From: Candidatus Thorarchaeota archaeon
GTDB taxonomy: Archaea > Asgardarchaeota > Thorarchaeia > Thorarchaeales > Thorarchaeaceae
DNA: 13,585 bases
Direction of reading: 5' to 3'
Assembly (NCBI GenBank): GCA_029858305.1
Contig: JAOUFI010000057.1
Span: forward strand, 1 to 13,585
Shown here: in pieces, positions 1-13,585 of the stretch
Numbering within the stretch: position 1 is the first letter of the stretch
How the letters are laid out: every line of letters begins with the position of its first letter
Notes under the pieces: model-generated
What the model was told of the DNA's origin: nothing
The model's database searches: none
What the model saw: the letters and a program-made list of their open reading frames with translations, nothing else
Made by a program: the position numbers and the translations under genes

Positions 1-668
1 TCATTTTGCGCGAGCATAGGAAGGGCTGTTCGAGGTTCAATTAGACGTTTCCTGATGGCATCATCCTTTATTGCACCTATTGACATTGATGTTGGGAAAA
101 AACCTGGAGCAATTGCATTTACACGAATATTGTGCTTTCCAAGTTCAACAGCCAATGCCTTTGTCATAGTAATCAGACCACCCTTTGAAGTATAATAGCT
201 AATCTCAGTAAACTCAGTCCCACCGTATCCGAATGTTGAGGATATGTTTATGATTGAACCAGATTTTTTGGGAATCATAACTTTAGCTACCTCTCGAGTC
301 GCAAGGAAGGCTGATGTGAGATTAACATTCATTACAAGGTTCCAATCATCGAGAGTCTGCTCCATGAGAGGTTTGACAATATACATCCCTGCGTTATTCA
401 CTAGCACATCAACTGTACCGAAATTACTCACTGTCTTCTCCACTAGATGAATGATATCTTTCTCTTTCGAGACATCAATCTTTAGCGGCATGGCTTTTAC
501 ACCATATTTTTCTGTGACTTCATCTGCTACTCTCTTTAGAAGATCTATGCGTCTAGCTCCAAGGACAACGTGAGCACCTGATTCTCCGAAAGCATGTGCA
601 AATTGCTCGCCAAGCCCTGCAGACGCGCCGGTGATAATCACAACTTTCTCATCGAGATTATACTTCAT
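1..668 (-). CDS. SDR family NAD(P)-dependent oxidoreductase (FabG/gluconate 5-dehydrogenase-like), 3' end truncated by the window edge
   Basis: Not in the ORF track because its stop lies outside the window. Manual translation from ATG at 668 gives MKYNLDEKVVIITGASAGLGEQFA..., with TGxxxGxG, VLVNNAG, IINISS, catalytic YxxxK (YYTSK) and IRVNAIAPG motifs. The frame is open to position 1. Confidence 0.95.
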   Translation of the reverse strand, partial: MKYNLDEKVVIITGASAGLGEQFAHAFGESGAHVVLGARRIDLLKRVADEVTEKYGVKAMPLKIDVSKEKDIIHLVEKTVSNFGTVDVLVNNAGMYIVKPLMEQTLDDWNLVMNVNLTSAFLATREVAKVMIPKKSGSIINISSTFGYGGTEFTEISYYTSKGGLITMTKALAVELGKHNIRVNAIAPGFFPTSMSIGAIKDDAIRKRLIEPRTALPMLAQN

Positions 669-677
669 TAATCTAAT

Positions 678-726
678 CTCCTGATAGACTCATACTATTG
701 TCTCATGTGAAAAACCCCTTAATAAA
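678..726 (-). promoter_or_regulatory. Putative TATA box and Shine-Dalgarno for the SDR gene
   Basis: Minus strand reads TTTATTAA (726-719) and AGGAG (682-678), the latter 9 nt before the ATG at 668. Confidence 0.5.
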
Positions 727-747
727 AACAGACATTGAATGAAGGAC

Positions 748-1212
748 TTAATCACACTCTGAAATGATCTTAGTATAATAGTTCTCGGAACGTACAAATC
801 CTTCCTTTTCATAGATGCCTTTACTCATCTTTGTATCATTGAGTGTCATCTTCTCTATTCCTCTTTCTCGACAAAGTTGAGTAATATGCCTCACGAGTGA
901 TGTCGCTATTCCTCTTCCACGATACTCAGGTTCCACGAACATATTGTAGAGATAAGCAAACCTTCCACTTGGATTTCTAGCTGAAGGATACGCAATGCAG
1001 AAACTTACTGCACAACCTCCAATTACTTGCTCTCCATATGTTGCGAGATAACACTCAATACTTGGGTCCCATGGCTCTTGCAGAAACTTATGCGTTGCAG
1101 TTTCAGTAGCTGAAATCATGTCCTCAGACCAGCCCATTGACCTTATCATTTCGATGCGATGATGGATAATTGTCTTGATATCATCTCTAGTTGCTTTTCT
1201 AATATGGATCAC
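748..1212 (-). CDS. GNAT family N-acetyltransferase
   Basis: IRKATRDDI N-terminal pattern and acetyl-CoA-binding motif A (NMFVEPEYRGRGIA), plus C-terminal GIYEKEGF. GTG at 1212 fits the domain boundary. TTG at 1221, or ATG at 1284 overlapping the upstream stop as ATGA, are alternative starts. Confidence 0.9.
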   Translation of the reverse strand: MIHIRKATRDDIKTIIHHRIEMIRSMGWSEDMISATETATHKFLQEPWDPSIECYLATYGEQVIGGCAVSFCIAYPSARNPSGRFAYLYNMFVEPEYRGRGIATSLVRHITQLCRERGIEKMTLNDTKMSKGIYEKEGFVRSENYYTKIISECD

Positions 1213-1280
1213 GGCGACCAATCTCAAAGCTGGTATGATATATTCGATAATTTGGATGTTCGGAATGTAGCAAGAAAGAA

Positions 1281-2255
1281 TCATTCCGGAGTAGTTCTGT
1301 CAATTGTGTCCTTAGAATCCAAGGAACGGTCTTTCCATCTGAGCTGATAGAGACGAAGCAAACCAATTGGAACAATAATAGCAAGCCAGATGACTACATC
1401 ACCAAGCGTTGACATTAGGCCCCTATTCCCAAGTGGATCCAGCCAGATTTGACCCAGTTTCATCATTGTGACAAGAGGTAAAATCAATATCAAACCAAAA
1501 ATCTGTTTCAACTGGACTGCATTGACTCGGCTGGCAAGTCTTGAACCAATCTGTCCTCCTATGAGCATCCCGAAGCCTAATGATATTGCAAAGTAAATAT
1601 TCACTGCTCCGACAAAGAAATTTAATGCTGTTCCAGCGGTTGTTGTGAAGATCATTATGAACATGGATGTAGCTACTGCAGCATGCATGGGCAATCCCAT
1701 CAGAACAGAAAGGACAGGCACGACGACAGCTCCTCCTCCAAGGCCAAGCAGTCCTGCAGAAATGCCGCCAATAAAAGCACCAAATAATGAAATCACCCAT
1801 TGTTTTCTTGTTATCTGAGAAACATTCCAATTTGCTAATTCTGAAATTAGGTCTCCTTTCCCTCTTTTCTTGGCAAAAAGCATCTTCAACGCAAGTGGCA
1901 TTAAAGCGATTCCAAATATGAGTCTTAACACATAAGGTGCTGTTATTAGAGTTCTAAGTAATACACCAAAGAGTGAGCCAGGAACAGAGAAGATTACAAG
2001 AATTAATCCAACTCTTAAGACGGTTGGACGTGGATTTTGATGCCAATATGCAACTGAGCTAGCAATTGACACAAATAGGGCACCTACAAGAGCTGTTGCT
2101 GGTGCTGATTGTTCATTAAAGATGCCAAAGAATACAATGAGAAGAAGAGGCGTGTTTAGAGTACCTCCTCCAATGCCAATCATCGAAGAGAGTGTACCTA
2201 CACCTATAGCAAATATCGTAACGAAAAGAATATCGACCAGCAGAATTTCCTGCAT
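1281..2255 (-). CDS. Sulfite exporter TauE/SafE (TSUP) family membrane protein
   Basis: Duplicated glycine-rich signatures (SSMIGIGGG..NTP and AGLLGLGGG..VVP), AAVATS and GGQIGSR, with multiple hydrophobic helices. SD AAGGTGG lies just upstream. Confidence 0.92.
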   Translation of the reverse strand: MQEILLVDILFVTIFAIGVGTLSSMIGIGGGTLNTPLLLIVFFGIFNEQSAPATALVGALFVSIASSVAYWHQNPRPTVLRVGLILVIFSVPGSLFGVLLRTLITAPYVLRLIFGIALMPLALKMLFAKKRGKGDLISELANWNVSQITRKQWVISLFGAFIGGISAGLLGLGGGAVVVPVLSVLMGLPMHAAVATSMFIMIFTTTAGTALNFFVGAVNIYFAISLGFGMLIGGQIGSRLASRVNAVQLKQIFGLILILPLVTMMKLGQIWLDPLGNRGLMSTLGDVVIWLAIIVPIGLLRLYQLRWKDRSLDSKDTIDRTTPE

Positions 2256-2259
2256 CTTG

Positions 2260-2303
2260 CCACCTTCTATATTCTGCCGAGGTCACAGTCCAGTACTTAA
2301 AAA
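2260..2303 (-). promoter_or_regulatory. Putative TATA box and Shine-Dalgarno for the TauE/SafE gene
   Basis: Minus strand reads TTTTTAAG (2303-2296) and AAGGTGG (2266-2260) before the ATG at 2255. Confidence 0.5.
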
Positions 2304-2327
2304 GTTGGATGTTGGAAGTTTTGTTTC

Positions 2328-2759
2328 TTAATCAGGAGTTCCTCTTTTGGCAATCATATAGAGCCCAATTAGGAATACTAGGAGGCCAATAAATATCAAA
2401 ATTGCCGCAAAATTCTGTTCTGTAAGATCCCTTGCAATGGCATTAATTGTTAATCCTCCAACAAGAACAAGAAATCCAATCACAGAAATCACCTTACCAG
2501 GTTTTGTATTATAGGACAAGAACTTTGGCAATTCTTCATCCCGAGGAATAACGGGGGCTTCTGATACTCTTACATTGGTCTTAAAGAAACGTGAACCGTC
2601 TTTTGAAATTGTGCCAAGCAATTCACCTGCTGATAACAGTTCATTAATCAATAAAGTAACATCCTCTGGATCGATATTGAGCTTTTCACCCATAGTAACA
2701 ATGGCACTGATATTATCGCTTAGAATAAGTTTGACAAGCTGTGATTTTTTATCTTCCAT
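2328..2759 (-). CDS. Hypothetical membrane protein: N-terminal PCI-like winged-helix domain plus two C-terminal TM helices (143 aa)
   Basis: Start moved to ATG 2759 because of SD GAGGT at 2771-2767. Residues 17-60 (ISAIVTMGEKLNIDPEDVTLLINELLSAGELLGTISKDGSRFFK) follow the PCI/winged-helix pattern. VISVIGFLVLVGGLTINAI and FAAILIFIGLLVFLIGLYMIA are likely TM segments. Confidence 0.75.
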   Translation of the reverse strand: MEDKKSQLVKLILSDNISAIVTMGEKLNIDPEDVTLLINELLSAGELLGTISKDGSRFFKTNVRVSEAPVIPRDEELPKFLSYNTKPGKVISVIGFLVLVGGLTINAIARDLTEQNFAAILIFIGLLVFLIGLYMIAKRGTPD

Positions 2760-2940
2760 TGTCACAACCTCTATAGTAGATGAGTCTTTGTACACTAAGG
2801 AGACTATCACTAAGACTTATGTTACTCAGGAATTACACCCAACTAGTGTATCAATATCTGTTTTTCTCTATGAGTACGGCTTCGTCAGCAGAGACCAAAC
2901 ACCTTATACGAGGATTTGTTAGGTTCGCCCTTGAGTCTAA

Positions 2941-3603
2941 ATGACAATTGGCAACAACATAAATGTGGCAACTCCAAAGAAATGGATGGACGGATGGGAC
3001 AAAATATACAGCCAAATGCTCTCTGCGACTGATGATGAGCTGGCTCGAATCGATGTCGGACATCGAACCCAGCAATTAGAGCATGCATTAGCAATTACCA
3101 AAACGGATACATCTGGTTTGAAAGTTTTAGAGCTGGGTAGTGGAGATGGAAATGTAGCCTGTTATCTTGCCCGCCTTGGGTGTCATGTGGTCGGAGTTGA
3201 TGCACTAGCAAGTGCAATAGCACTAGCTCAACGAAAATCCAAGATTCTTGGTTTCTCAGATCGAGTTGAGTTCCGTCTGGATGACATCGATGGCTGGTCA
3301 ATTCCCAAAGAATCATACAATGTAGTGATTGCGTTGCAATGTCTGCAGTATCTCTTTGACAGAACTATTCCCAGATTGAGAGAGGCAATGGCAGCAGTAA
3401 AGCCAGGTGGATTCTTTGTCTACAGTGGAAATATTCCACCTCACTTCGAGACAGATCCTCCAATACGGTTTGTTACGCCAGATGAATTGCGAAGCGAGCT
3501 TGAGGGCTGGACACTCCATGCTTTTGGTACAGAAGAGCGAATTCTCCATCCTAATGATCTGAGAGGATATGTTTGGGCGGTTGCACGGAAACCATTGCAT
3601 TAG
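2941..3603 (+). CDS. Class I SAM-dependent methyltransferase
   Basis: Motif I VLELGSGDG, post-I VVGVD, motif II-like YNVVIA and motif III VKPGGFFV. The substrate cannot be inferred. Confidence 0.93.
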   Translation: MTIGNNINVATPKKWMDGWDKIYSQMLSATDDELARIDVGHRTQQLEHALAITKTDTSGLKVLELGSGDGNVACYLARLGCHVVGVDALASAIALAQRKSKILGFSDRVEFRLDDIDGWSIPKESYNVVIALQCLQYLFDRTIPRLREAMAAVKPGGFFVYSGNIPPHFETDPPIRFVTPDELRSELEGWTLHAFGTEERILHPNDLRGYVWAVARKPLH

Positions 3604-3609
3604 TTTAGA

Positions 3610-4458
3610 CTAGGACTTAATCCCCCAGAAAACGACTTGTCCGAGGTTGGTTTCGTACAGTCCATTTTTTGAGAAGTTTTCTTCGATTATTCCTTGTAGC
3701 AATTTTCCTTCTACAATGCCCAACTCAGGAAATAAGTCCATAGTAACCTTGCTGATAAAGTTGTCAAGCATTGGACTCCTTGGTTCATCAAAGAATACAA
3801 AGGGTACAGTAATTCTCAGAATCCCATTTATTGCCAGTGACCTTTTGCACTCAGAAATTGCGGATGGTAGTTCATTTGGATTTGGAACGCCTCGTAGACG
3901 AATTTCTGAAACCGATCCGCTTTGTGTGTCGATAGAGTTGATATCATCTCCCATGTGCAAATAATCAATCCCAGTTTTACAAAGGATATCACCTGATCCA
4001 ATAATCGCAATTAACGGGGATTCATTGGATGCAATCACATCTCGGATCTCATGCAAATCTTCTACAGTCATATTTGGGAAAGCGGCAAAGAGAATACAGC
4101 CATTAGGTCGATTTATCTTTGGTTCTTTTCTGAGCTTGCAAAGAGTTCCAGAATTCTCATGTCTATAAATACAATAGAAGTGAAGAATGGTTTCTATGGC
4201 ATCTCGAAGACTCTCATTCAAGTAATCTTGAGCTCTAGGTCCGAGTTCATACATTCTCCTATAGGGTCCAAGGGGACCTGGTTGGAGCGCACTAACTACT
4301 AATTCATCTTCTTCCATGGCTTTGAGTAATTTTGGCAATCTTGTCCTTCCAGGATCAGCTATATCCGAAATTGAATATTGGATATCATAGATTGACGAGG
4401 GATGTCGGTCTATAGTGAGCAAGATTTTTCTCATAATATCTGATCGGGGGACCTTCAC
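3610..4458 (-). CDS. PadR-like winged-helix transcriptional regulator with a C-terminal degenerate methyltransferase-like domain
   Basis: GTG start with SD AGGTGA at 4468-4463. The N-terminus ILLTIDRHPSSIYDI...KLLKAMEEDELV...GPYRRMYELGPRAQDYL matches the PadR pattern. The C-terminus GDDINSIDTQSGSVSEI...AISECKRSLAINGILRITVP resembles class I MTase motifs II/III. Confidence 0.75.
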   Translation of the reverse strand: MKVPRSDIMRKILLTIDRHPSSIYDIQYSISDIADPGRTRLPKLLKAMEEDELVVSALQPGPLGPYRRMYELGPRAQDYLNESLRDAIETILHFYCIYRHENSGTLCKLRKEPKINRPNGCILFAAFPNMTVEDLHEIRDVIASNESPLIAIIGSGDILCKTGIDYLHMGDDINSIDTQSGSVSEIRLRGVPNPNELPSAISECKRSLAINGILRITVPFVFFDEPRSPMLDNFISKVTMDLFPELGIVEGKLLQGIIEENFSKNGLYETNLGQVVFWGIKS

Positions 4459-4462
4459 TATC

Positions 4463-4502
4463 TCACCTACTATACAAATTGTAGTGAAATATTTCCTTAA
4501 TA
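4463..4502 (-). promoter_or_regulatory. Promoter region of the PadR-like gene with candidate operator palindromes
   Basis: On the minus strand: TATTAA (4502-4497), perfect palindrome GAAATATTTC (4486-4495), TACAA-A-TTGTA (4473-4483) and SD AGGTGA (4468-4463). Confidence 0.45.
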
Positions 4503-4601
4503 CTCAAACGTTCAACGCCAACATTATGCCAGATTGAATAAAGAGCTTCGAAAAAGATAGGCAGGGCTGTAGATGGACATTAAGAAAATCCCTGTAAGGT
4601 A

Positions 4602-5504
4602 TTAGATTGCCAGTATAACAAGCATAACTCCTGCTACAGTGAGTACAACTCCGATAATCGATTTGGAACTGAATTTCTCCTTAAGAGTCATGATCGAGAT
4701 AGGAACGGCAAAGAGAGGAGATGTGGACCCAAGTAGTGCTGAGATTGGTGCACCTATGAGTTTGACAGTATATGTATATAGAAGAGATCCTAATGTCATT
4801 CCTAGAAATCCCGCAGCAACAACAATTTTTGCCGACCTTCGAGTTGGAAGACGCATTCCGAGTTTAATTGAGCCGAGGAATATTGGAACAAATATCATAC
4901 CTCCGAATAGCATTCTAATGAAATTTGCATCAATTGGATCTATTCCTGTAACACCTATCTGAAGCAGTACAGTTCCGAATGCCCAAGCGAGTGCGGCGAG
5001 AAAAGCCAAGCCTATACCTAAGGCATCGAATTTTTTCATGCCATTCCGTTTATTCTTTTCAGCTTGCTCTCTTGATATTAATGTCACACCTAGAACGGCC
5101 ACAATGATACCGATGAATCTGCTTATGATGATAGTTTCATTCACTAGGAAGATGGCAACGATATAGGTCAAAATTGGATAGATATTCGCAATCGGGAAAG
5201 CATAGGATACACCAATCCTCTCCTGGCTAGTGAGGTAGATCACATCGCCAATGACCAATCCAATTGTCACTGAACTAGCTAAGTAGATCATATTCTCAAA
5301 GGGTACATAGAAAGGTGTTGTCCTAAATGGAATAATGACAATCAAAGACATGAAAACCATAGCAGCCCACATTTTCATTGCGTTAATCGCTATCGGCGTT
5401 GCTTCCTTACTTTGGGATTTGTAAACGTTAGTTGATACTGCCCAAAGAAACGATGTAAACAAACCGATTATGCTTCCGATGATAAGTTCTGGTGTGAGCT
5501 GCAT
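4602..5504 (-). CDS. DMT/EamA family transporter
   Basis: 300 aa with about 10 TM helices in two repeats. Typical segments are FLWA, IGVSYAFPI..IYPI..FLVNE, ALAWA and IGAPISALL..TSPLF..LKEK. Confidence 0.93.
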   Translation of the reverse strand: MQLTPELIIGSIIGLFTSFLWAVSTNVYKSQSKEATPIAINAMKMWAAMVFMSLIVIIPFRTTPFYVPFENMIYLASSVTIGLVIGDVIYLTSQERIGVSYAFPIANIYPILTYIVAIFLVNETIIISRFIGIIVAVLGVTLISREQAEKNKRNGMKKFDALGIGLAFLAALAWAFGTVLLQIGVTGIDPIDANFIRMLFGGMIFVPIFLGSIKLGMRLPTRRSAKIVVAAGFLGMTLGSLLYTYTVKLIGAPISALLGSTSPLFAVPISIMTLKEKFSSKSIIGVVLTVAGVMLVILAI

Positions 5505-5549
5505 ATGGATATCAGAGAGTGGTTGCTGAAGGTCTTATTGAAGCTATTC

Positions 5550-5561
5550 TATTGTACAATA
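5550..5561. promoter_or_regulatory. Perfect 12-bp palindrome, candidate transcription-factor site
   Basis: TATTGTACAATA in the divergent intergenic region between the DMT gene and ORF 5709. Confidence 0.35.
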
Positions 5562-5708
5562 TTCAATCACAATGTACTTGGCTTTCCGCGGTCTGTATTC
5601 GTTCAGAATTCAATTTTCAACGAGAGATTCTCTTGTACCTAGAGAAAAGAGTCTTCGAAACACATATTGCAATCACTTTGTACACGAGTGATATGAAGTG
5701 CGTTTCCT

Positions 5709-6446
5709 ATGTCAGATAGACTTGACGAGCTTGAAAGAATTCGTAGCCTTGTTCAGGCAAGTGCACCAGAAGTGACTTCAGAAACACGAAAAGCATTCTG
5801 GAAATTTGTACGACAGATAAAACGTGAAGTCGAGCCTAATCAAGAGGAAGTCGCGATTGCGTCAGAGATTCGAAATATCCTATTCATGTTAGACAGAGGG
5901 AAGACATATCCTATCGTTCCGTTCCTAGGCATTGAGATTGCTGGGGGACTTGTTTCATTTCTTGTTTTTCTCTATGGCTTGACAATTCCAATCAGTTGGA
6001 TTGACATCCTCTCTTGGTCGTTCACTGATATCGTTGTGGTCTTGATCAGGTTTCTTGGTCTCTTTTTTGTCGTAGCACTAATCTATCCTTGCGGGAGAAT
6101 AATCGCTGGGAGACTGTTCGGTATTCGTTTGGAAGCCTGGTGTTTTGATGAATATAAGGAGCCCACACTAAAGATAGATTATGTCTCATTCCTTCTTGCT
6201 CGACCAAGTAGAAGAAAGTGGTTTTTCTTCATCTCCGGATTATGGACTTTAATACTCTCGATTATTATCGGCATTATTGGATTCGTCCTTGGTGGTGACC
6301 TCTTAGGATTCTTCTTCAGCTTTTTCTTAATTCTATTTTACACATATGTGATACAGACCGGAACAACTTCTCATGGTCGAGGTGAGATGGCGCATTACAA
6401 CAGGGAAAAGATGATTGAGAAGAGCTGGAGAAAAAGGTTGGTTTAG
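5709..6446 (+). CDS. Hypothetical integral membrane protein (about 4 TM), possibly a degenerate M50/site-2-protease-like fold
   Basis: 245-aa ORF with a charged helical N-terminus and four hydrophobic stretches. It contains the segment IYPCGRIIAGRLFGIRL...PTLKIDYVSFLLARPSRRKWFFFISG. Coding status is well supported; the function is speculative. Confidence 0.7.
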   Translation: MSDRLDELERIRSLVQASAPEVTSETRKAFWKFVRQIKREVEPNQEEVAIASEIRNILFMLDRGKTYPIVPFLGIEIAGGLVSFLVFLYGLTIPISWIDILSWSFTDIVVVLIRFLGLFFVVALIYPCGRIIAGRLFGIRLEAWCFDEYKEPTLKIDYVSFLLARPSRRKWFFFISGLWTLILSIIIGIIGFVLGGDLLGFFFSFFLILFYTYVIQTGTTSHGRGEMAHYNREKMIEKSWRKRLV

Positions 6447-6500
6447 CTACTCCACTTTCATACCATCCTCAACTGCATTGCGGTAATGTATTAGATTTTA

Positions 6501-6600
6501 TTGTGAATAGTCACAAGTTGGGACCTCGAAATGAGTCCCCCCTTGGTGGCTCCTCATTATATAGTTTTGATTCTCAAAAATGAGTGGTTCTTCTAAGGAG
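6501..6600 (+). promoter_or_regulatory. MFS gene promoter: TATA box flanked by two related inverted repeats, plus SD
   Basis: TTGTGA-N4-TCACAA (6501-6516), TTATATA (6557-6563), TTTTGA-N3-TCAAAA (6565-6579) and AAGGAG (6595-6600) before ATG 6612. Confidence 0.55.
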
Positions 6601-6611
6601 TACTGCAAGAA

Positions 6612-8120
6612 ATGAGTAGGACTTCAAGCTTCATGGGATTCACGGAGGCTGATGAGAAGGCGGTTCACCTTGGTAGAATTCTCATGATTCTCCTTCCAAC
6701 CGCTAACATCATCTTTACATTGAGTACTACTTTCTATACTATTTTCATTGCTGAAGCTTTGGGTGGTCCCGATGGATTCATTGGTGGATTAGGTCTATTA
6801 GGGGTTCTTGCAGCAATAGAGATGATCACTCAAACCATTCTTGACTATCCGAGTGGTGCATTAGGTGATGCAATTGGACAGCGGTGGGTAATAGCTATTG
6901 GGAACTCGCTGTATGGAGTGGTCTTCTTTATGGTTTCCTTCGTTACTCCCACAACACCTTTTCTTTACCTAGTAGCTATCTTCGTTCTTCAAGGTCTTGC
7001 TCAATCACAGATTAGTGGAGCATGGGGCGCATGGTTTGATAATAATTACAAAGTCGCCATGCCAAAAGATAAGGATAGAAAGCAATATGGAGTATTTTGG
7101 GGTCGTATGGGTATGATTGCACAGATTGCATCAACTGCAGCGCTCATTCCAGGTAGTATACTTGCAGTTGCTTTTCAGAGACCCTTTGTCTTTCAGCTTC
7201 AGGCTATAGGTGCTGTGTTCTTTGCATTCCTTGTCCTACGGTACATTAGAGACTTTCCTGAAGTGGAAGCACTACGTAAGCAACGCCCATCAATGAGTGA
7301 GTATACTTCTCTTTTGAAAGAGGGTGTAACATATCTCTGGAAGACTCCCTTTGTCAAATATCTAGTGTTGGGCTCGATGCTTGCGGCGAGTGCAATCTCT
7401 GTGTGGGGTCAATTGATTCTATTTCCTCTCTATTACAGTTACTTAATCACCGATGTAGCAGTTGCCACATACCGGACAGTCGCTTTCATACCAGGAGTTG
7501 CAGCAAACGAGCGTTCGGGGATATGGTCACAGAGATTTGAGCCGAAGAAATGGATTCCACGATTCAGACTTCTACAAGCATGTGGTTTTGTATTCTTTCT
7601 AGTTCTTGCTTTCATCATGTTTGTCTTTCCTCCAGTCGGAGATGCAGCTCAGATGGTCACAATCATGTGGCCCTTCACATCGTTAGTCCTCATTGAGATA
7701 CCACTGCAGCACATTGTTCCAATTATTATTCTCTTTAGTCTCTTCACGATTACGATGTTCTTTGGGGGCTTCGCTGAAATCCTCACTCAGCGAGTACTAC
7801 TTGATGCTATACCAAGCAGAAATCGAAATTCGCTCTACTCTCTACAGCCAACAATTCTCCTTATCTTAGCAACTCCACAGATTGCGATTCTTGGTTGGGT
7901 CATTCCAATTATGGGTTTCCCGGCTACTCTACTCATTTGTGGACTTGTATCACTGTCTGGCGTCTTCATCATCAGATATGCACTGACACTTGAAAAACCA
8001 GTAATAGAGGACGAGGATACGAACCCTGCTCTAAAAGAGCACAAAGAAGACATCGATATATTGCGATCGGAAACTCCATCAGAAGAAACGGAAGAAGTTG
8101 TTAGAGCCATACAGGAGTGA
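6612..8120 (+). CDS. Major facilitator superfamily transporter
   Basis: 502 aa with about 12 TM helices, MFS motif A variant DYPSGALGDAIGQRW, cytoplasmic IPSRNRNS loop and an acidic C-terminal tail. Confidence 0.92.
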   Translation: MSRTSSFMGFTEADEKAVHLGRILMILLPTANIIFTLSTTFYTIFIAEALGGPDGFIGGLGLLGVLAAIEMITQTILDYPSGALGDAIGQRWVIAIGNSLYGVVFFMVSFVTPTTPFLYLVAIFVLQGLAQSQISGAWGAWFDNNYKVAMPKDKDRKQYGVFWGRMGMIAQIASTAALIPGSILAVAFQRPFVFQLQAIGAVFFAFLVLRYIRDFPEVEALRKQRPSMSEYTSLLKEGVTYLWKTPFVKYLVLGSMLAASAISVWGQLILFPLYYSYLITDVAVATYRTVAFIPGVAANERSGIWSQRFEPKKWIPRFRLLQACGFVFFLVLAFIMFVFPPVGDAAQMVTIMWPFTSLVLIEIPLQHIVPIIILFSLFTITMFFGGFAEILTQRVLLDAIPSRNRNSLYSLQPTILLILATPQIAILGWVIPIMGFPATLLICGLVSLSGVFIIRYALTLEKPVIEDEDTNPALKEHKEDIDILRSETPSEETEEVVRAIQE

Positions 8121-8141
8121 TGGGATTTTACCCATCACTCC
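8114..8141. terminator. Perfect 11-bp hairpin between convergent genes (candidate terminator or RNA-stability element)
   Basis: GGAGTGATGGG-ATTTTA-CCCATCACTCC. The left arm contains the MFS stop codon TGA (8118-8120). No poly-U tract follows directly. Confidence 0.55.
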
Positions 8142-8197
8142 AACTATTCTATGAATATTGCTGTACTAATAACGCAAGAAGAAAAAATGCATGGATT

Positions 8198-9262
8198 TTA
8201 GTTTTCATAGAAATATTTGCCTTTACTATATATCAGTTCATCACCTGCGTAGATTTCGCCTTTATGCATTGATTTAATCATGTCTACATGAACTGCTGAT
8301 TCATTTTCGCCATTGCATTCTTTATAGGCACGCCCTAATGCACAATGAATCGTATCGCCAATCTTTTCATCAAACAACATGTTAAGAGTATACTGTTTTA
8401 TTCCCCGATTTGTACCGATGGCCATCTCACCAAGTCTGCGAGATCCTTCATCAGTTTCTATAATCGACTTGAGAGTGGCTTCCTCCTTCTCTGCTGAGAA
8501 GTCGACTACTACTCCTTTTTCAAATGTCAATCTGACTCCTTCAATCACTTTACCTTGTTGGAGAAATGGAATATCAAAGAAGATCTTCCCCTCAACACTA
8601 TTTTCTACAGGTCCTGTAAACACTTCACCACTGGGCATGTTGTGCTTGCCATCACTCGCAATCCATATCCTCCCCTCTGTTGACGCATAAAGATCGGTTT
8701 CTGGCCCAATGTATCTGATGTCTTTATGATTCTCTAGGTGTTCCTTCATAACATACAGCATCTTGCTTTCTTCAGCCCAGTCTATGAGAGTGGCTCCATA
8801 GACAAAATCACGATATTCTTCAAGGCTCATGTCTGCCTGCTGCGCTAAGGTCTGACATGGATGGACTGTAAGGGTCCATCGTTTTCCAAGGCGGATGCCT
8901 TGAATCTCCTGCTGAGATTTATTATCTATCAGAATACGTTTCGGATCAACATTAGCGAGCGCCTTCGTATTAACAGGAGAGCGCAATGCGATATAGACAT
9001 CGCAGGTTTCTGTAATTGCTTTCAGATGTTTTGGAACGAGTTGTAGTGTTTCTTCTGACGCACCATCATAGAAAGCTCGAAGTGCCTCCTCACTGTTCAT
9101 CAAAGTCACAACTCTTCCGCCAGCCTCTGCGATCTTTCTGTTCAAGGCAACAACAAGCTCATGGGAGTCAGGTGTTGCACTGATAACAACCATATCACCC
9201 GGTTTTATTGCTGTGCTCCATTCGACAAGTATCCTAGCATGCTCTTCAATTCGGGAATCCAT
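8198..9262 (-). CDS. Aminopeptidase, peptidase family M29 (AmpS/AmpT/PepS-like)
   Basis: Family motifs NMPSGEVFTGP, LGEMAIG, LFDEKIGDTIHCALGRAY and NESAVHVD, which carry the metal ligands and the catalytic Tyr. Confidence 0.95.
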   Translation of the reverse strand: MDSRIEEHARILVEWSTAIKPGDMVVISATPDSHELVVALNRKIAEAGGRVVTLMNSEEALRAFYDGASEETLQLVPKHLKAITETCDVYIALRSPVNTKALANVDPKRILIDNKSQQEIQGIRLGKRWTLTVHPCQTLAQQADMSLEEYRDFVYGATLIDWAEESKMLYVMKEHLENHKDIRYIGPETDLYASTEGRIWIASDGKHNMPSGEVFTGPVENSVEGKIFFDIPFLQQGKVIEGVRLTFEKGVVVDFSAEKEEATLKSIIETDEGSRRLGEMAIGTNRGIKQYTLNMLFDEKIGDTIHCALGRAYKECNGENESAVHVDMIKSMHKGEIYAGDELIYSKGKYFYEN

Positions 9263-9464
9263 TTCAAAGCCTCAGAAATCATGAAATCTTTGGCGGTCAT
9301 ATAGGTTGTGGAGTACGCTGTTCCAGCGTCAGAATGTAGCAATATGCTCAGATGTCACGCTTCCAAGTCGTGTGTGTTGTTCATCTATAGCGGAAATTGG
9401 CTATCAAGGGACTGGTACTTTCGATTTGTGCTAAATATTATATTCGATTACTGTCATAGCAAAG

Positions 9465-9998
9465 ATGAAGGGTAATCTGTTTATGAAACGACCTATCTTT
9501 CTAGTGAGTTGTGGATTCATAGCTCTCATCATCTACGATTTTTTCTTTGCTTCAGTAATTCATCCCAATGTACCATTTATTGTCGGAGAAACAATAGTCA
9601 TCGTAATCGCATGTATTTTTCTAACTGCAGGGATTGCTGATGGAATACCAGAAACACGGCGTTATATCACGCGGCCAAAGAAGGCAGTCTACTCTGCAAT
9701 GGACCCTTCTATTCTGAGTCGTGTTGTGAAGGATGGGCTAGAAGGAGATGAATTCTTGGTTCGTGGCTCTAGAGAAACAACTTTTCGGGAAGCATGTATT
9801 GCAAATTGGCAGTTCAAGTATGTAAATCGCAAATCAGATTGGTTAGTAACTGATAGCAAAGGAAATGATGTATCAAAAGAGCCATTATCACGTTTTGACG
9901 GTCTTTTTACCCTAATCCGTGGAAATGGAACTGATGAGTCATTTGATGGTGCAGATGAGCCCACATCGATTCATGATAGTGTAGAATACTACGACTAA
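9465..9998 (+). CDS. Hypothetical 2-TM protein with putative beta-grasp (ubiquitin-like) domain and EYYD C-terminus; paralog A
   Basis: Two N-terminal hydrophobic helices. Residues 76-151 align without gaps to the paralog at 11946 (30/76 identical by hand count). AT-rich TATA-like TAAATATTATAT at 9432-9443. Alternative start is ATG 9483, preceded by GAAGGGT. Confidence 0.85.
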   Translation: MKGNLFMKRPIFLVSCGFIALIIYDFFFASVIHPNVPFIVGETIVIVIACIFLTAGIADGIPETRRYITRPKKAVYSAMDPSILSRVVKDGLEGDEFLVRGSRETTFREACIANWQFKYVNRKSDWLVTDSKGNDVSKEPLSRFDGLFTLIRGNGTDESFDGADEPTSIHDSVEYYD

Positions 9999-10016
9999 TT
10001 GCTGGTTTCCGTTTCA

Positions 10017-10427
10017 CTAGATCTCGCGTTTCTCAGCAGACTGCGTCGCTCCACAATATGGGCATTTAACAGTGAGCGGTCCAACCCATTCAATTCCCTC
10101 GGATGTAATGGCAGCTCCACAGCTTGAACAGAAACTCGGAGGTTGGTATACATATGACTTTTCTTTTGACACTGCAGTTATCTGACGATTTGGTACGAAA
10201 CGGATCATTGCATTTTGACCAACAGATTTTCGTAGACCATAGAGTATAACACCTATTCCAATAAGTGCACTAATCATGGGCACAACTAAGACATAGAACA
10301 GAATCGTTCCTACGTCAAGCGTATCTGCCCAGAAGAATTGCATAAATCCTCCGAAAAAGCCTCCGACAATAATGATTAATCCAATAATAGTTGTGACGCA
10401 ACTTTTTCCGCTAGAATCATCTGACAT
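10017..10427 (-). CDS. Small 2-TM membrane protein with C-terminal zinc ribbon
   Basis: Two hydrophobic helices followed by CSSCG...EWVGPLTVKCPYCG (two CxxC knuckles). Confidence 0.85.
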   Translation of the reverse strand: MSDDSSGKSCVTTIIGLIIIVGGFFGGFMQFFWADTLDVGTILFYVLVVPMISALIGIGVILYGLRKSVGQNAMIRFVPNRQITAVSKEKSYVYQPPSFCSSCGAAITSEGIEWVGPLTVKCPYCGATQSAEKREI

Positions 10428-10562
10428 TTTTCATCAAACCTAGTTTCTATTTCGCATAATTACACACCGAGTTATAGGTTTCTCTCTGATGGACTAATTT
10501 GTGTTATGAATTCTTTCTGCTTCATTAATTCGCTGGAAGAAACACCATACAATCACGAGTCC

Positions 10563-10569
10563 TTTAATA
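10563..10569 (+). promoter_or_regulatory. Putative TATA box implying a leaderless transcript for the ion transporter
   Basis: TTTAATA ends 25 nt before ATG 10595, and there is no SD in between. Confidence 0.45.
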
Positions 10570-10594
10570 GTCAGAACCTCAGTAAGAGACCATA

Positions 10595-11875
10595 ATGGAC
10601 GCAGCAGGAGTAATCATACTTGTCATACTCATTATTACTCTACTAGTGATACTATCTGAACGGATTAATGAAACAGCAATGGCTCTGCTGGCAATGTCCA
10701 TTGTTGGGGGGATTCTCTATCTCGCCTATGGATTCACATTCACAGAATTCGTATTATTGATGCCTTGGGATACCATCCTATTTGTTACTGCAATGCTAAT
10801 TGTTGTAGCCATCGCAGCTTCATCAGGAATGTTTCAATACATAGCCTTGGTACTGATCCGAAGAACTCAGGGAAATCCGCGAATGATTTTTGTGACATTC
10901 ATGGCTTTTGTTTTTATCATCTCACTTTTTCTCGATCCACTACCGACGATGCTAGTGATGGGAGTGTTTACCGTAGAGGTCTGTAAAGCGGTTGATTTGG
11001 ATTTCAGACCGATTCTCATCTCCGAAGTGATAATTGCCAACTTTGCATCATTTCCCTCTTTGGTTGGATCTGTACCAAATCTAGTCATCTTCGTAAAATC
11101 AAATATTGACCTACCATTCGCGTTTGTCATTCTAATGCCACTCTCATTGATTCTATTTGGTTTGACTATGTTCTTGCTCTTGCGCAGATACAGTGACTCT
11201 CTAGTAGTCGAGGGTGGCTCTGATTGGAATGTTCTCTACATGATCAAACCAAGCGTCATGATAAAATCAAGGCATGATTTCTATCTATCAATCATAGCTA
11301 TGGCAATTCTAATTCTAGGATTCACAATTGGAGCAATTCGTATAGAGGCAAGTTTGATAGCAATGATGGTTGCCTCAGGTATGCTAGTCTTCTCGCATGA
11401 ACGTGCTAAAGATCTGCTCAGAACTCTCTCATGGGATACAATCTTCTTCCTTGTTGGTCTGTTCGGAATAATTGCAGGTCTCGAACGAACAAATGTGATA
11501 CATGAATTTGTGACTGGAACTATGGACCTGATTGGGCAGAATATCTTCTTGGCCATTGGATTTATGATCTGGATTCCTGGCTTTGTACTCTCGCTAATTG
11601 ACAATATACCAATAGCTGCTCTCCTAGCCCCATTAGGACTTCAGCTTGGCACAATAAATGCAGTTGTCCCACTTGCCCTCATTGTTGGGACTAATGTTGG
11701 AGGTTACATGATTCCCTTCGGTGATGCACCGAATATGATTGCAGTAGGTCTTGCGGCAGATGAGGGGAAACCTATCAGTTTTATGGATTTCACAAAGATC
11801 GCGCTTCCCCTAGGATTTCTTCATCTCCTCGTGAGTACTGGGTATTTGATTCTTGTTGCTCTAATACTTGGATAG
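10595..11875 (+). CDS. Ion transporter superfamily permease (ArsB/NhaD/SLC13, P-protein/OCA2-like)
   Basis: 426 aa and highly hydrophobic, with internal repeat WDTILF / WDTIFF. Second-half motifs are IDNIP and GTNVGG..PFGDAPN. Confidence 0.9.
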   Translation: MDAAGVIILVILIITLLVILSERINETAMALLAMSIVGGILYLAYGFTFTEFVLLMPWDTILFVTAMLIVVAIAASSGMFQYIALVLIRRTQGNPRMIFVTFMAFVFIISLFLDPLPTMLVMGVFTVEVCKAVDLDFRPILISEVIIANFASFPSLVGSVPNLVIFVKSNIDLPFAFVILMPLSLILFGLTMFLLLRRYSDSLVVEGGSDWNVLYMIKPSVMIKSRHDFYLSIIAMAILILGFTIGAIRIEASLIAMMVASGMLVFSHERAKDLLRTLSWDTIFFLVGLFGIIAGLERTNVIHEFVTGTMDLIGQNIFLAIGFMIWIPGFVLSLIDNIPIAALLAPLGLQLGTINAVVPLALIVGTNVGGYMIPFGDAPNMIAVGLAADEGKPISFMDFTKIALPLGFLHLLVSTGYLILVALILG

Positions 11876-11945
11876 TCTTACTTCGCATCTGAGATACTTA
11901 ATCATTATATTCCTTCAGGAGGATACTTGTGCTGAGGGGTTCGAA

Positions 11946-12485
11946 TTGGATAAGTTCCTACGAAATTCATTACTCATAGTATTGTTGATTCCCTTTGTGT
12001 TCATTCTAAGTTATTATGGAATCATACCTACACCTGTAACTGAAACTGCAGCTGTTTCGTTCCTGATGTTTGTTATTTTCCTTGTCATAATTGGGATAGT
12101 ACTACTCGGCCTGTACTACGCATTCGTTGAGTCTATGGCAAGAAGCAAAGCGCAGAAAAAATACAGTGACCCCGACCCGACTCAATGCCGACGTGTGGTC
12201 AAGGATGGAATTGATGGTGCTGACTATTTAATCAGTGGACCTCTAAAGGAATCATTCGGACAAGCCTGTAGAAATAACTGGCAATTTGAAAAGACTGACA
12301 AGCATTCCAGTTGGATAGTCAAAGATGAACGAGGAAATGACATAACAAACTCCCCCCTCGAGTCCTATGATAGTATTGCCATGATTGTAGGCACTTTTGG
12401 TTCAGAATACTTTACCGGAGAATCCGAAAGTGACATACCATCTGAATATACTTCAATTGAAGATGGCACCGAATACTATGATTAA
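11946..12485 (+). CDS. Hypothetical 2-TM protein with putative beta-grasp (ubiquitin-like) domain and EYYD C-terminus; paralog B (179 aa)
   Basis: Start moved to in-frame TTG 11946, which follows SD GAGGGGT (11934-11940) and gives a length matching paralog A. Shares RVVKDG, ACxxNWQF, WxVxDxxGND and TSIxDxxEYYD with ORF 9465. Confidence 0.85.
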   Translation: MDKFLRNSLLIVLLIPFVFILSYYGIIPTPVTETAAVSFLMFVIFLVIIGIVLLGLYYAFVESMARSKAQKKYSDPDPTQCRRVVKDGIDGADYLISGPLKESFGQACRNNWQFEKTDKHSSWIVKDERGNDITNSPLESYDSIAMIVGTFGSEYFTGESESDIPSEYTSIEDGTEYYD

Positions 12486-12517
12486 GTTCTTCAGTAAATT
12501 GTATCATTTTGTGTATC

Positions 12518-13006
12518 ATGTTCGAGTTAATGGCGAATGCTTTCAAACGAGGACTTAGAGGCAAGCACACCCATATGGATCCTCTGAAAGCTCTTGAAGG
12601 TCTTACCCCAGAGAATGCTCGAATGGTCCCATCCAAGGGAACTCATTCATGTTGGCATATTCTCTATCACATCGTATATTGGCAAGAATTAATGCTAACT
12701 GCAATAAAGGGTGAGGAAGTAGACTGGCCAAAGAACAATGAGGAGAGCTGGCCTACCAACAAGTTGCTTGAACGCTCCAAAGACTGGGTTAAGCTTGTTG
12801 AGAAATTCGAGAATGGACTTAACGAAGCGGAGAATCTAACACGCACGCTTGAATCCACTGAAGATTTGCCAGCATGGCCTAAGGTTCCACCTTTTGCAGC
12901 ATTCTTAGTACTTGCACAGCACAATTCATTCCACATTGGTGAGATTGTTGCGACGCGTCAGGCACTGGGCATTTGGCCGCCACCTGATTACAAAGCTATG
13001 TTCTAA
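12518..13006 (+). CDS. DinB/YfiT family protein (putative thiol S-transferase or metal-dependent hydrolase)
   Basis: HSCWHILYHIVYWQ and QHNSFHIGEIVATRQALG give the DinB His triad pattern. The start is ATG 12518 or ATG 12530. Confidence 0.9.
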   Translation: MFELMANAFKRGLRGKHTHMDPLKALEGLTPENARMVPSKGTHSCWHILYHIVYWQELMLTAIKGEEVDWPKNNEESWPTNKLLERSKDWVKLVEKFENGLNEAENLTRTLESTEDLPAWPKVPPFAAFLVLAQHNSFHIGEIVATRQALGIWPPPDYKAMF

Positions 13007-13011
13007 GAATT

Positions 13012-13585
13012 CTATTTCCTGAACGGCACAACTCGCACCAGAACTGAGTTGAAACCTGGTGTATGTCCAAATGCGGTGTGTTTATCATCAGTAAGTACAT
13101 TGACGTTTCCATCATGATTCCACCACCCATCTGATGACCATACAACTCTTGGATCTACATCTTCAGTGAGTTCCAATCTAATATTCTCTATACTTCCTCT
13201 CTTTGATTCGATAGTCACTCTGCATCCATCGGTGAGATTGAGGTCTCTTGCTGTTTTAGGGTGCATCCTTAGAAATGTACGATTTGAGCTTGTTTCTTTC
13301 ATTAAAGGCATTCGTATTGGATTTGTGACAACATCATACGGACAGACATCAATCTGGCATTCTCTACAGCCAATGCACCGTGATTCATCCCATGTAGGTA
13401 TCAAGAGTGATGTAATCTCGGAGGGGACATTTATACTGGCCTCTGAGAGGCTGACTGCTAGTTCTCCGATTAGTGTGCTCAATTCACGACGAAGTATTGC
13501 AGGACTTGTCGTAGCTTTATCAGCGTCCTGTTGAAGAAGCTGTGGATTTGGTTGGAAAAAGGAAATTGCCTCTTCAGGGCATTTA
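13012..13585 (-). CDS. Molybdopterin (Mo/W-bisPGD) oxidoreductase C-terminal region with 4Fe-4S ferredoxin motifs; 5' end outside the window
   Basis: The frame stays open past the ORF-track start to the edge (KCPEEAISFFQPNPQ...). It contains CIGCRECQIDVCP and then the molybdopterin dinucleotide-binding pattern LRMHPKTARDLNLTDGCRVTIESKRG...DGWW...NVNVLT...TPGFNSVLVRV. Confidence 0.88.
   Translation of the reverse strand, partial: KCPEEAISFFQPNPQLLQQDADKATTSPAILRRELSTLIGELAVSLSEASINVPSEITSLLIPTWDESRCIGCRECQIDVCPYDVVTNPIRMPLMKETSSNRTFLRMHPKTARDLNLTDGCRVTIESKRGSIENIRLELTEDVDPRVVWSSDGWWNHDGNVNVLTDDKHTAFGHTPGFNSVLVRVVPFRK

Follow-up and report, generated by a model that had tools for sequence, protein, structure and literature searches.

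The hydrophobic-tyrosine-any residue (HbYX) C-termini of PAN, archaeal Cdc48, Rpt2/3/5, Blm10/PA200 and the PAC/Pba chaperones are docking peptides of the 20S proteasome; Blm10/PA200 end in YYA, the residue X is unconstrained, and the known carriers are ring-shaped or multivalent regulators. The EEVD-COOH tails of Hsp70 and Hsp90 are read by the dicarboxylate clamps of tetratricopeptide repeat (TPR) proteins, and C-terminal degrons are known as a class. Other linear peptides, namely SUMO-interacting motifs (SIM), LC3-interacting regions or Atg8-interacting motifs (LIR/AIM) and UFM1-interacting motifs (UFIM), bind the beta-grasp proteins SUMO, Atg8 and UFM1. Ubiquitin-fold domains are held at the cytoplasmic face of membranes in MUB/UBL3 and in Ubx2/UBXD8; in UBXD8/Ubx2, a hydrophobic hairpin serves as the anchor and the beta-grasp domain lies at the C-terminal end. 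Here we analyze a stretch of 13,585 nucleotides from Candidatus Thorarchaeota archaeon (contig JAOUFI010000057.1, positions 1 to 13,585 of the forward strand; hereafter the window). It contains two open reading frames (ORFs), A and B, for membrane proteins that end in the same tail, TSIxDxxEYYD. With a probability of roughly 60%, we read this tail as part of a C-terminal short linear docking motif of about 14 residues that lies at the cytoplasmic face of the membrane and is bound in trans by a reader.

A conserved tail at the C-terminus of A and B

By alignment, A and B are paralogues (BLASTP: 35% identity, 148 aligned columns, E = 1e-27), and neither has a match to any Pfam or NCBIfam family. 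The last 11 codons of A read ACA TCG ATT CAT GAT AGT GTA GAA TAC TAC GAC (TSIHDSVEYYD) and those of B read ACT TCA ATT GAA GAT GGC ACC GAA TAC TAT GAT (TSIEDGTEYYD), each followed by TAA (coordinates in Table 1). An initial annotation of this DNA had pointed out that 8 of these 11 residues are identical, that four of the eight common codons differ synonymously (ACA/ACT, TCG/TCA, TAC/TAT and GAC/GAT), and that the tail follows linkers of different length and sequence. All three statements held when the sequence was re-read; the linker of B carries a six-residue insertion in the A-B alignment.

Relatives of A and B were gathered by two word-based searches (10 and 9 proteins), a contig scan (22 loci) and a profile run against 1.84 billion cluster representatives, which matched 122 proteins at E <= 1e-3. 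After deduplication, the census set consisted of 161 distinct sequences (P0001-P0139 and 22 derived from loci), fragments included. It also includes one unrelated entry, P0123, a 972-residue Malectin-domain protein that matched the profile with E = 4.6e-10 over seven short stretches; we treated this match as spurious and left the protein out of the 138-member alignment.

The tail is present in 79 of the 161 distinct sequences and missing from the other 82. In 71 of the 79 tails, [YF]-Y-[DNE] stands at the exact C-terminus, directly before the stop codon (YYD in 43 cases, FYD in 23), as expected of a tail that is both terminal and conserved among homologues. Five of the remaining tails end in Y[FL]DD and three in FGE or FFG. 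Residue positions were counted back from the C-terminus over the 71 canonical tails. Position 0 is Asp in 66 of them (Asn in three, Glu in two) and position -1 is Tyr in all 71; position -2 is Tyr (47) or Phe (24), position -3 mostly Glu (46) or Thr (15), position -4 Val (63), and position -5 Gly (32) or Ser (30). Further upstream, the prevailing residues are Ile (39), Met (13) or Leu (7) at -8, Ser (44) or Asp (15) at -9, Ser (40) or Thr (18) at -10, Tyr (42) or Phe (6) at -11, Glu (47) at -12, and Asp (34) or Glu (18) at -13. Conservation is highest in the terminal V-x-[YF]-Y-D. The 11 residues first reported are thus a real unit, but they are not its full extent: conservation continues for three more residues upstream, [DE]-E-[YF], giving about 14 in total and a consensus of [DE]-E-[YF]-[ST]-[SDT]-[IML]-x-[DR]-[GS]-V-x-[YF]-Y-D. 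Protein A itself has Pro at -11, where most family members have Tyr or Phe.

Codon usage was compared among 14 tail-bearing genes (91 pairs) by a Nei-Gojobori-type count, which is uncorrected and comes from a small sample. Over the last five codons the proportion of synonymous differences (pS) was 1.10 and that of nonsynonymous differences (pN) 0.18, for a pN/pS of ~0.17; over the last 11 codons the values were 0.87 and 0.32. Every possible codon is in use for the Val at -4, the Tyr at -1 and the Asp at 0 (four, two and two codons, respectively). Because the peptide is kept while synonymous sites are saturated, selection acts on the peptide and not on the nucleotides. Judged by these counts and by the family census, the tail is under protein-level selection, and the earlier proposal of such selection on the free C-terminus stands.

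One group of variants is informative about which features of the tail are constrained. Orthologues of B that are 51-70% identical to it (P0013 and P0016-P0019) end in TEYFDD or TEYLDD and so have Asp in the penultimate position, while they retain the nine residues upstream, E[YF]TSI[ED]x G TEY. The core common to all variants is [ET]-[YF]-[YFL]-D plus zero or one extra Asp.

Of the 3595 ORFs with 100 or more residues in the genome to which the window belongs, only A and B end in the pattern [VIAT].[YF]Y[DE]. A 191-residue zinc-ribbon protein of the same genome (G000:C114:31629-32204, minus strand) ends in SSESEMQSDYYD (SDYYD). This end is not retained in homologues: of 27 further distinct matching ORFs in 24 loci, a 95% orthologue is the only one with a similar end (DHYD), and we regard the resemblance as due to chance. 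One other protein of the genome ends in GFYD. A metal-binding role for H-D-x-x-E-Y-Y-D was also dropped, as His occupies -7 in just 23 of the 71 canonical tails.

Among members of at least 100 residues, 75 of 138 carry the tail and 63 do not. The 63 tail-less members retain the signature of the folded domain (R86, E96, G101, W115, F117, W126, D130 and D135). Since about half of the family does without it, the tail is an add-on module rather than a part of the fold. A third paralogue in the window's own genome is of the tail-less kind (contig C205; locus L003, 1483-1944, minus strand): its 153 residues comprise the hairpin and the ubiquitin-like (UBL) domain described below, with no linker or tail, and end in IVFLKEN. 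It is flanked by a 258-residue ORF and by an Elp3-like radical-SAM/acetyltransferase ORF, so labeled by reading of the sequence and not by a family search.

The membrane hairpin, the beta-grasp domain and the docking proposal

AlphaFold2 (AF2) models were obtained for A from a 20-sequence alignment and for B from a 135-sequence alignment. In both, two long N-terminal helices (residues 3-23 and 33-70 in B; those of A are in Table 1) precede a domain with the order strand-strand-helix-strand-strand. When the two models were compared with the PDB by Foldseek, ubiquitin, UBL, Ras-binding, UBX, SUMO and FERM-F1 domains came out on top, with E values from 2.6e-3 (from 6e-3 for A), probabilities of 0.9-1.0 and template-modeling scores on the target, TM(target), of 0.58-0.67. 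VIA, which is independent of Foldseek, gave Z scores of 6.2-7.6 and root-mean-square deviations of about 2.5-3.8 Å, with 65-77 residues aligned of domains of ~75 residues. For model A, Z was 7.2-7.6 and the deviation 2.6-3.8 Å with 71-77 residues aligned; of the 50 rows listed for model B, 47 fell on model residues ~70-160 (Z 6.2-7.6), and their titles were nearly all ubiquitin, UBL, Ras-binding or FERM F0/F1. As modeled, the carrier domain is a ubiquitin-like beta-grasp fold. Because VIA Z scores below 8 are middling, we assign the fold and do not claim homology to a particular UBL family. A conserved di-Gly, the conjugation end of the ubiquitin/SAMP/Urm1 type, is absent from the family alignments; here the domain leads into the linker and then the YYD tail.

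The charge distribution around the hairpin provides an indication of its orientation. In the 85 members with two hydrophobic segments, Lys and Arg together average 2.9 residues ahead of the first transmembrane helix and 2.2 over the 15 residues that follow the second, compared with 0.15 for the loop. By the positive-inside rule, this distribution corresponds to an N-in/C-in topology, which would place the domain and the tail in the cytoplasm. The resulting layout, a ubiquitin-fold domain held at what is predicted to be the cytoplasmic face of the membrane, is like that of MUB/UBL3 and Ubx2/UBXD8, the hairpin anchor being shared with the latter, and among the Foldseek matches of model A the MUB-E2 complex 4x57 ranked 23rd and the UBX domain 2cr5 25th. 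The likeness is confined to layout: there is no sequence similarity, as seen in the lack of a Pfam or NCBIfam match, the anchor consists of two transmembrane helices and not of a prenyl group, the additional C-terminal motif has no known counterpart in these eukaryotic proteins, and the family is limited to one archaeal family.

Linker and tail are predicted to be flexible. In the model of A, residues 155-174 have predicted local distance difference test (pLDDT) values below 50, and linker and tail are without secondary structure. In the model of B, pLDDT is below 50 at linker residues 153-160 and 163-165; its mean is 52 over the linker and 67 over the last nine residues, again with no strand. 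The tail is therefore not a structural strand of the domain in either model, an arrangement that would have been at odds with a free docking peptide as initially annotated. Taken together, the terminal conservation, the variable and disordered acidic linker and the dispensability of the tail in half of the family argue for a short linear docking motif. We propose that the tail would serve as a flexible handle and be bound in trans by a cytoplasmic reader, which would contact the two aromatic residues, Val -4 and the acidic terminus and would thereby be held at the membrane beside the UBL domain.

Several points weigh against this proposal. The term docking motif derives solely from conservation, disorder and terminal position, and the topology solely from the positive-inside rule. 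The pLDDT of 67 for the last nine residues of B, compared with 52 for the linker, could mean that the tail packs in cis on its own domain. Four residues of the domain helix, T106, F107, A110 and C111, are more conserved in tail-bearing than in tail-less members, a pattern that would fit an intramolecular or intra-family contact; closer kinship of the tail-bearing members alone may also explain it. Finally, a metatranscriptome run (X20) yielded a single contig of 228 nt, at 10239-10466 in the zinc-ribbon gene of the window, and none on A or B.

The pLDDT difference and the four helix residues would be accounted for if the tail recognized a beta-grasp domain of the family, either its own, in autoinhibition, or that of a neighboring or paralogous copy, which could build chains or lattices along the membrane. 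In its N-terminal half, [DE]-E-[YF]-x-x-[IML], the tail has the acidic-aromatic-x-x-aliphatic pattern of a LIR core and of the SIM and UFIM peptides (an aromatic residue at -11 in 48 of 71 tails, Ile, Met or Leu at -8 in 59 of 71, and mostly Glu or Asp at -12 and -13), and the carrier itself holds a beta-grasp domain. Family genes are also often in tandem, with two or three adjoining copies in loci L006, L007, L012 and L019 and likewise in G185, G260, G179 and G161. However, the aromatic residue of the LIR-like half is dispensable, for A has Pro there (EPTSI) and P0003 has Ser, whereas B has EYTSI; Met, found at the last position of this half in some tails, is unusual for a LIR; and it is the terminal V-x-[YF]-Y-D, and not the LIR-like half, that is conserved best. 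In neither model does the tail extend the sheet as an additional strand. Covariation between tail and domain (mutual information with average-product correction, 54 tail-bearing sequences after an 80% identity filter) produced no pair that stands out: the top values of 0.15-0.18, with a standard deviation of 0.05, include many ties, and the sequences are too few. We consider recognition within the family unlikely.

Table 1. Positions of the UBL membrane genes, of the segments of their products and of neighboring genes in the window
Feature	Positions	Strand	Remarks
ORF A	9465..9998	+	177 residues from ATG 9465; hairpin, UBL domain, acidic linker, tail
A, predicted hairpin of two transmembrane helices	9486..9668	+	residues 8-31 and 38-68, AF2 helices
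A, predicted ubiquitin-like beta-grasp domain	9711..9920	+	residues 83-152; AF2 pLDDT 85-90
A, variable acidic linker	9921..9953	+	residues 153-163; alignment columns poorly conserved
A, C-terminal motif DEPTSIHDSVEYYD	9954..9995	+	part reported earlier, 9963-9995; stop codon 9996-9998
Small membrane protein: two hydrophobic segments; zinc ribbon (CxxC...CxxC) at the C-terminus	10017..10427	-	between A and the permease gene; weak zinc-ribbon Pfam matches
CitMHS-type (ArsB/NhaD-like) permease	10595..11875	+	Pfam PF03600, E = 1.7e-41; directly upstream of B, co-directional
ORF B	11946..12485	+	179 residues from TTG 11946; architecture as in A
B, predicted ubiquitin-like beta-grasp domain	12183..12392	+	residues 80-149; AF2 pLDDT 96-98
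B, C-terminal motif SEYTSIEDGTEYYD	12441..12482	+	part reported earlier, 12450-12482; stop codon 12483-12485

The proteasome and other candidate readers

The initial annotation described the tail as HbYX-like and suggested that it might tether proteasomes or another partner to the membrane. In the proteasomal version of this idea, the terminal [YF]-Y-D would enter the inter-alpha pocket of the 20S particle and bond the pocket lysine, and the proteasome would be tethered or gated at the membrane with the UBL domain alongside. The formal pattern is there: hydrophobic-Tyr-X stands at the exact C-terminus in 71 of 79 tails, those of A and B included, and the antepenultimate residue is hydrophobic throughout the 71, being Tyr or Phe. 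The predicted cytoplasmic location of the tail-bearing domain makes a membrane tether geometrically possible. HbYX docking and the role of a conserved alpha-subunit lysine are described in a preprint (bioRxiv 10.1101/2025.05.09.653063). The host encodes a 20S proteasome of two alpha and two beta subunits (loci L027, L029, L026 and L028), and both alpha types were found in 38 of 41 genomes of the family that were searched, the remaining three having one match each. The canonical host alpha subunit is of the 20S type, matching a solved archaeal alpha subunit with E = 3e-69, and its Lys67, which we take to be the lysine of the HbYX pocket, is invariant in 30 of 30 aligned sequences (29 alpha-1 sequences of the family and the host's own alpha-2). 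Among the host ATPases (L030-L032), PAN ends in SSMYA and the two Cdc48-like proteins in QSMYG and LPGYM; given the SSMYA and QSMYG ends, HbYX-type docking is likely used in this host.

The details of the tail fit such docking less well. The last residue is Asp in nearly all canonical tails, whereas X is free in HbYX, and the caveat of the initial annotation, that an acidic last residue is atypical and that the tail might instead be a ligand of another clamp, was apt; the alternatives it gave were a Tyr-phosphorylation site, a sorting signal or a TPR-clamp ligand. Conservation over 14 residues exceeds what a pocket insert needs. The penultimate Tyr is missing from 8 of the 79 tails, the three FGE/FFG and the five YFDD/YLDD endings; in the latter, which belong to B orthologues, a one-residue extension puts Asp in the penultimate position while the rest of the tail remains constrained, which is hard to reconcile with a motif that needs its Tyr at a constant distance from the carboxylate. 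The HbYX termini of the host itself, MYA and MYG, are also unlike the tail. The carrier is also of another kind, a small protein with two transmembrane helices and a UBL domain rather than a ring ATPase, a HEAT-repeat cap or an assembly chaperone, and nothing indicates that it is oligomeric. Prediction of a complex between three copies of the canonical alpha subunit (30-row alignment) and residues 148-177 of A (the tail with its own alignment) returned scores of 0.00 and 0.01 against a mark of 0.32; run without controls, it speaks neither way.

We therefore think that what is conserved is an acidic-aromatic patch and not a Tyr fixed at -1 from the carboxylate, and that the tail is probably not a canonical gate-opening HbYX motif. 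Of the earlier description, the formal Hb-Y-X pattern survives and its canonical meaning probably does not; a membrane tether remains feasible in its geometry. Insertion of the tail into the 20S pocket is in our estimate rather unlikely. Still less would we expect the fuller picture of a hairpin-anchored UBL adaptor whose Hb-Y-X-shaped tail docks the 20S proteasome, or a machine of the Cdc48/PAN type, on the cytoplasmic side of the membrane. If true, it would be a prokaryotic membrane-proteasome tether with the logic of eukaryotic UBL/UBX adaptors that has arisen within Asgard archaea.

Under the docking reading that we favor, the tail can also be set beside EEVD. The two share, as a pattern of sequence, an acidic C-terminal end (Asp at 0 in 66 of 71 tails and in the five YFDD/YLDD tails as well, and Glu at -3 in 46 of 71). 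They differ in that the tail of A reads V-E-Y-Y-D and not E-E-V-D, and in that its carrier is not a chaperone. A reader that recognized both the carboxylate and the Asp side chain, in the manner of EEVD, would explain the conserved terminal Asp. Since YFDD and YLDD still end in Asp, reading of this type fits the variants better than HbYX does.

Candidate readers of two further kinds were sought in the window's own genome, which is 88.9% complete. For a reader of FFAT-type tails (two phenylalanines in an acidic tract, E-F-F-D-A-x-E, bound by VAP proteins), the MSP domain PF00635 gave a best E value of 0.29 (12.4 bits, against a cut-off of 25.9); for a reader of p97/Cdc48-type tails, the PUB domain PF09409 gave a best E value of 0.33 (12.6 bits, against 34.3). 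Neither domain thus scored above its cut-off in that genome. A look-alike search of the ESM Atlas returned no usable match.

The tail is terminal, exposed, predicted to be disordered and strongly conserved, and these properties would also suit a C-terminal degron that marks the membrane protein for turnover by LonB, Cdc48 or PAN. A two-part motif of 14 residues with an invariant acidic end is, however, more elaborate than the degrons we are familiar with, and nothing in the data points to turnover. We regard a degron as very improbable.

Gene neighborhood and lineage distribution

The genes for A and B lie in a conserved block (window positions 8198-13584, loci L004-L021) that comprises an M29 aminopeptidase, a zinc-ribbon protein, a CitMHS permease, one to three UBL membrane genes, a DinB-fold protein and a molybdopterin oxidoreductase with a 4Fe-4S motif. 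Neighbors were counted over 24 clustered sources, made up of 22 related loci, the locus of the third paralogue (L003) and the window. M29 was found in 13 of them, the zinc-ribbon protein in five, CitMHS in 13, DinB in nine and the molybdopterin oxidoreductase in 11. By reading of the listed places, ~20 genomes from several genera have a permease gene and a family gene on one strand within ~2.5 kb of each other.

This arrangement raises the question of whether the family proteins are accessory or regulatory subunits of the permease, with the hairpin packed on the transporter and the UBL domain and tail regulating it or coupling it to a cytoplasmic factor. The co-directional permease beside family genes in 13 of 24 sources is in line with this, as is the longest frame of ORF B (205 residues from TTG 11868), which overlaps the stop codon of the permease gene by 8 nt. 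Yet all these genomes belong to one family, and since they are kin, the shared gene order may be inherited rather than selected; the M29 peptidase, the DinB protein and the molybdopterin oxidoreductase are in the block as well. An orthologous permease (56-57% identity) is encoded in two genomes, G233 and G128, where no family member was found at E <= 1e-5, whereas the family genes of locus L005, copy A of the window and the third paralogue do not adjoin a permease gene. The overlap, and with it a possible translational coupling to the permease, also depends on the start codon. In the B homologues P0012 and P0019 the protein begins at the position of LDKFLRN, which corresponds to TTG 11946, and other homologues start further in; with TTG 11946, there is no overlap with the permease gene but a gap of 70 nt. 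Moreover, a role as permease subunit leaves the tail unexplained, and we hold it to be improbable. From their recurrence, the CitMHS permease and the zinc-ribbon protein count as conserved neighbors, and a partnership with the permease is not claimed.

Homologues of ORF A were found at 99, 80 and 68% identity. The ATG at 9465 is doubtful as its start, because the contig of a related strain (run X2) shows an A>G change at 9465 and lacks one base at 9468, and because the homologue P0002 begins at the equivalent of ATG 9483 (MKRP...) and the ESM Atlas record for A begins at residue 7 of A. Comparison with these sequences suggests that the true start is probably ATG 9483, for a protein of 171 residues.

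Two other ORFs of the window are without a Pfam or NCBIfam match. That at 2328-2810 (minus strand) encodes a protein of 160 residues, soluble in its N-terminal part and hydrophobic toward the C-terminus, and is present also in loci L010 and L014; that at 5709-6446 (plus strand) encodes a multi-pass membrane protein of 245 residues.

The distribution of the family was surveyed in 301 genomes across the phylum. At E <= 1e-5, the family profile had matches in 54 of the 76 genomes of the window's own GTDB family and in none of the 225 genomes from 29 other families. The contigs of all 22 loci bear titles of either Candidatus Thorarchaeota or "uncultured archaeon". Within this sample, the family is lineage-specific to Thorarchaeota.

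Narrow full-text searches of the open-access literature found no printed description of the tail or the family. As far as sequence comparison can tell, we are dealing with a new C-terminal linear motif on a lineage-specific family of membrane UBL proteins, akin to known docking peptides with a free C-terminus. Should its partner prove mundane, or should the tail bind its own domain only, a well-delimited lineage-specific family would remain. C-terminal docking peptides such as HbYX, EEVD, EEY and others are a recurrent wiring of protein machines, and a new one usually leads to a reader. The carriers are confined, in the sampled genomes, to one family of the Asgard archaea, a group studied for the origins of the eukaryotic ubiquitin, proteasome and membrane-trafficking systems. 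Because this short and sharply defined motif can readily be synthesized, identifying its partner could show whether machinery, proteolytic or other, is recruited to the membrane in these archaea.

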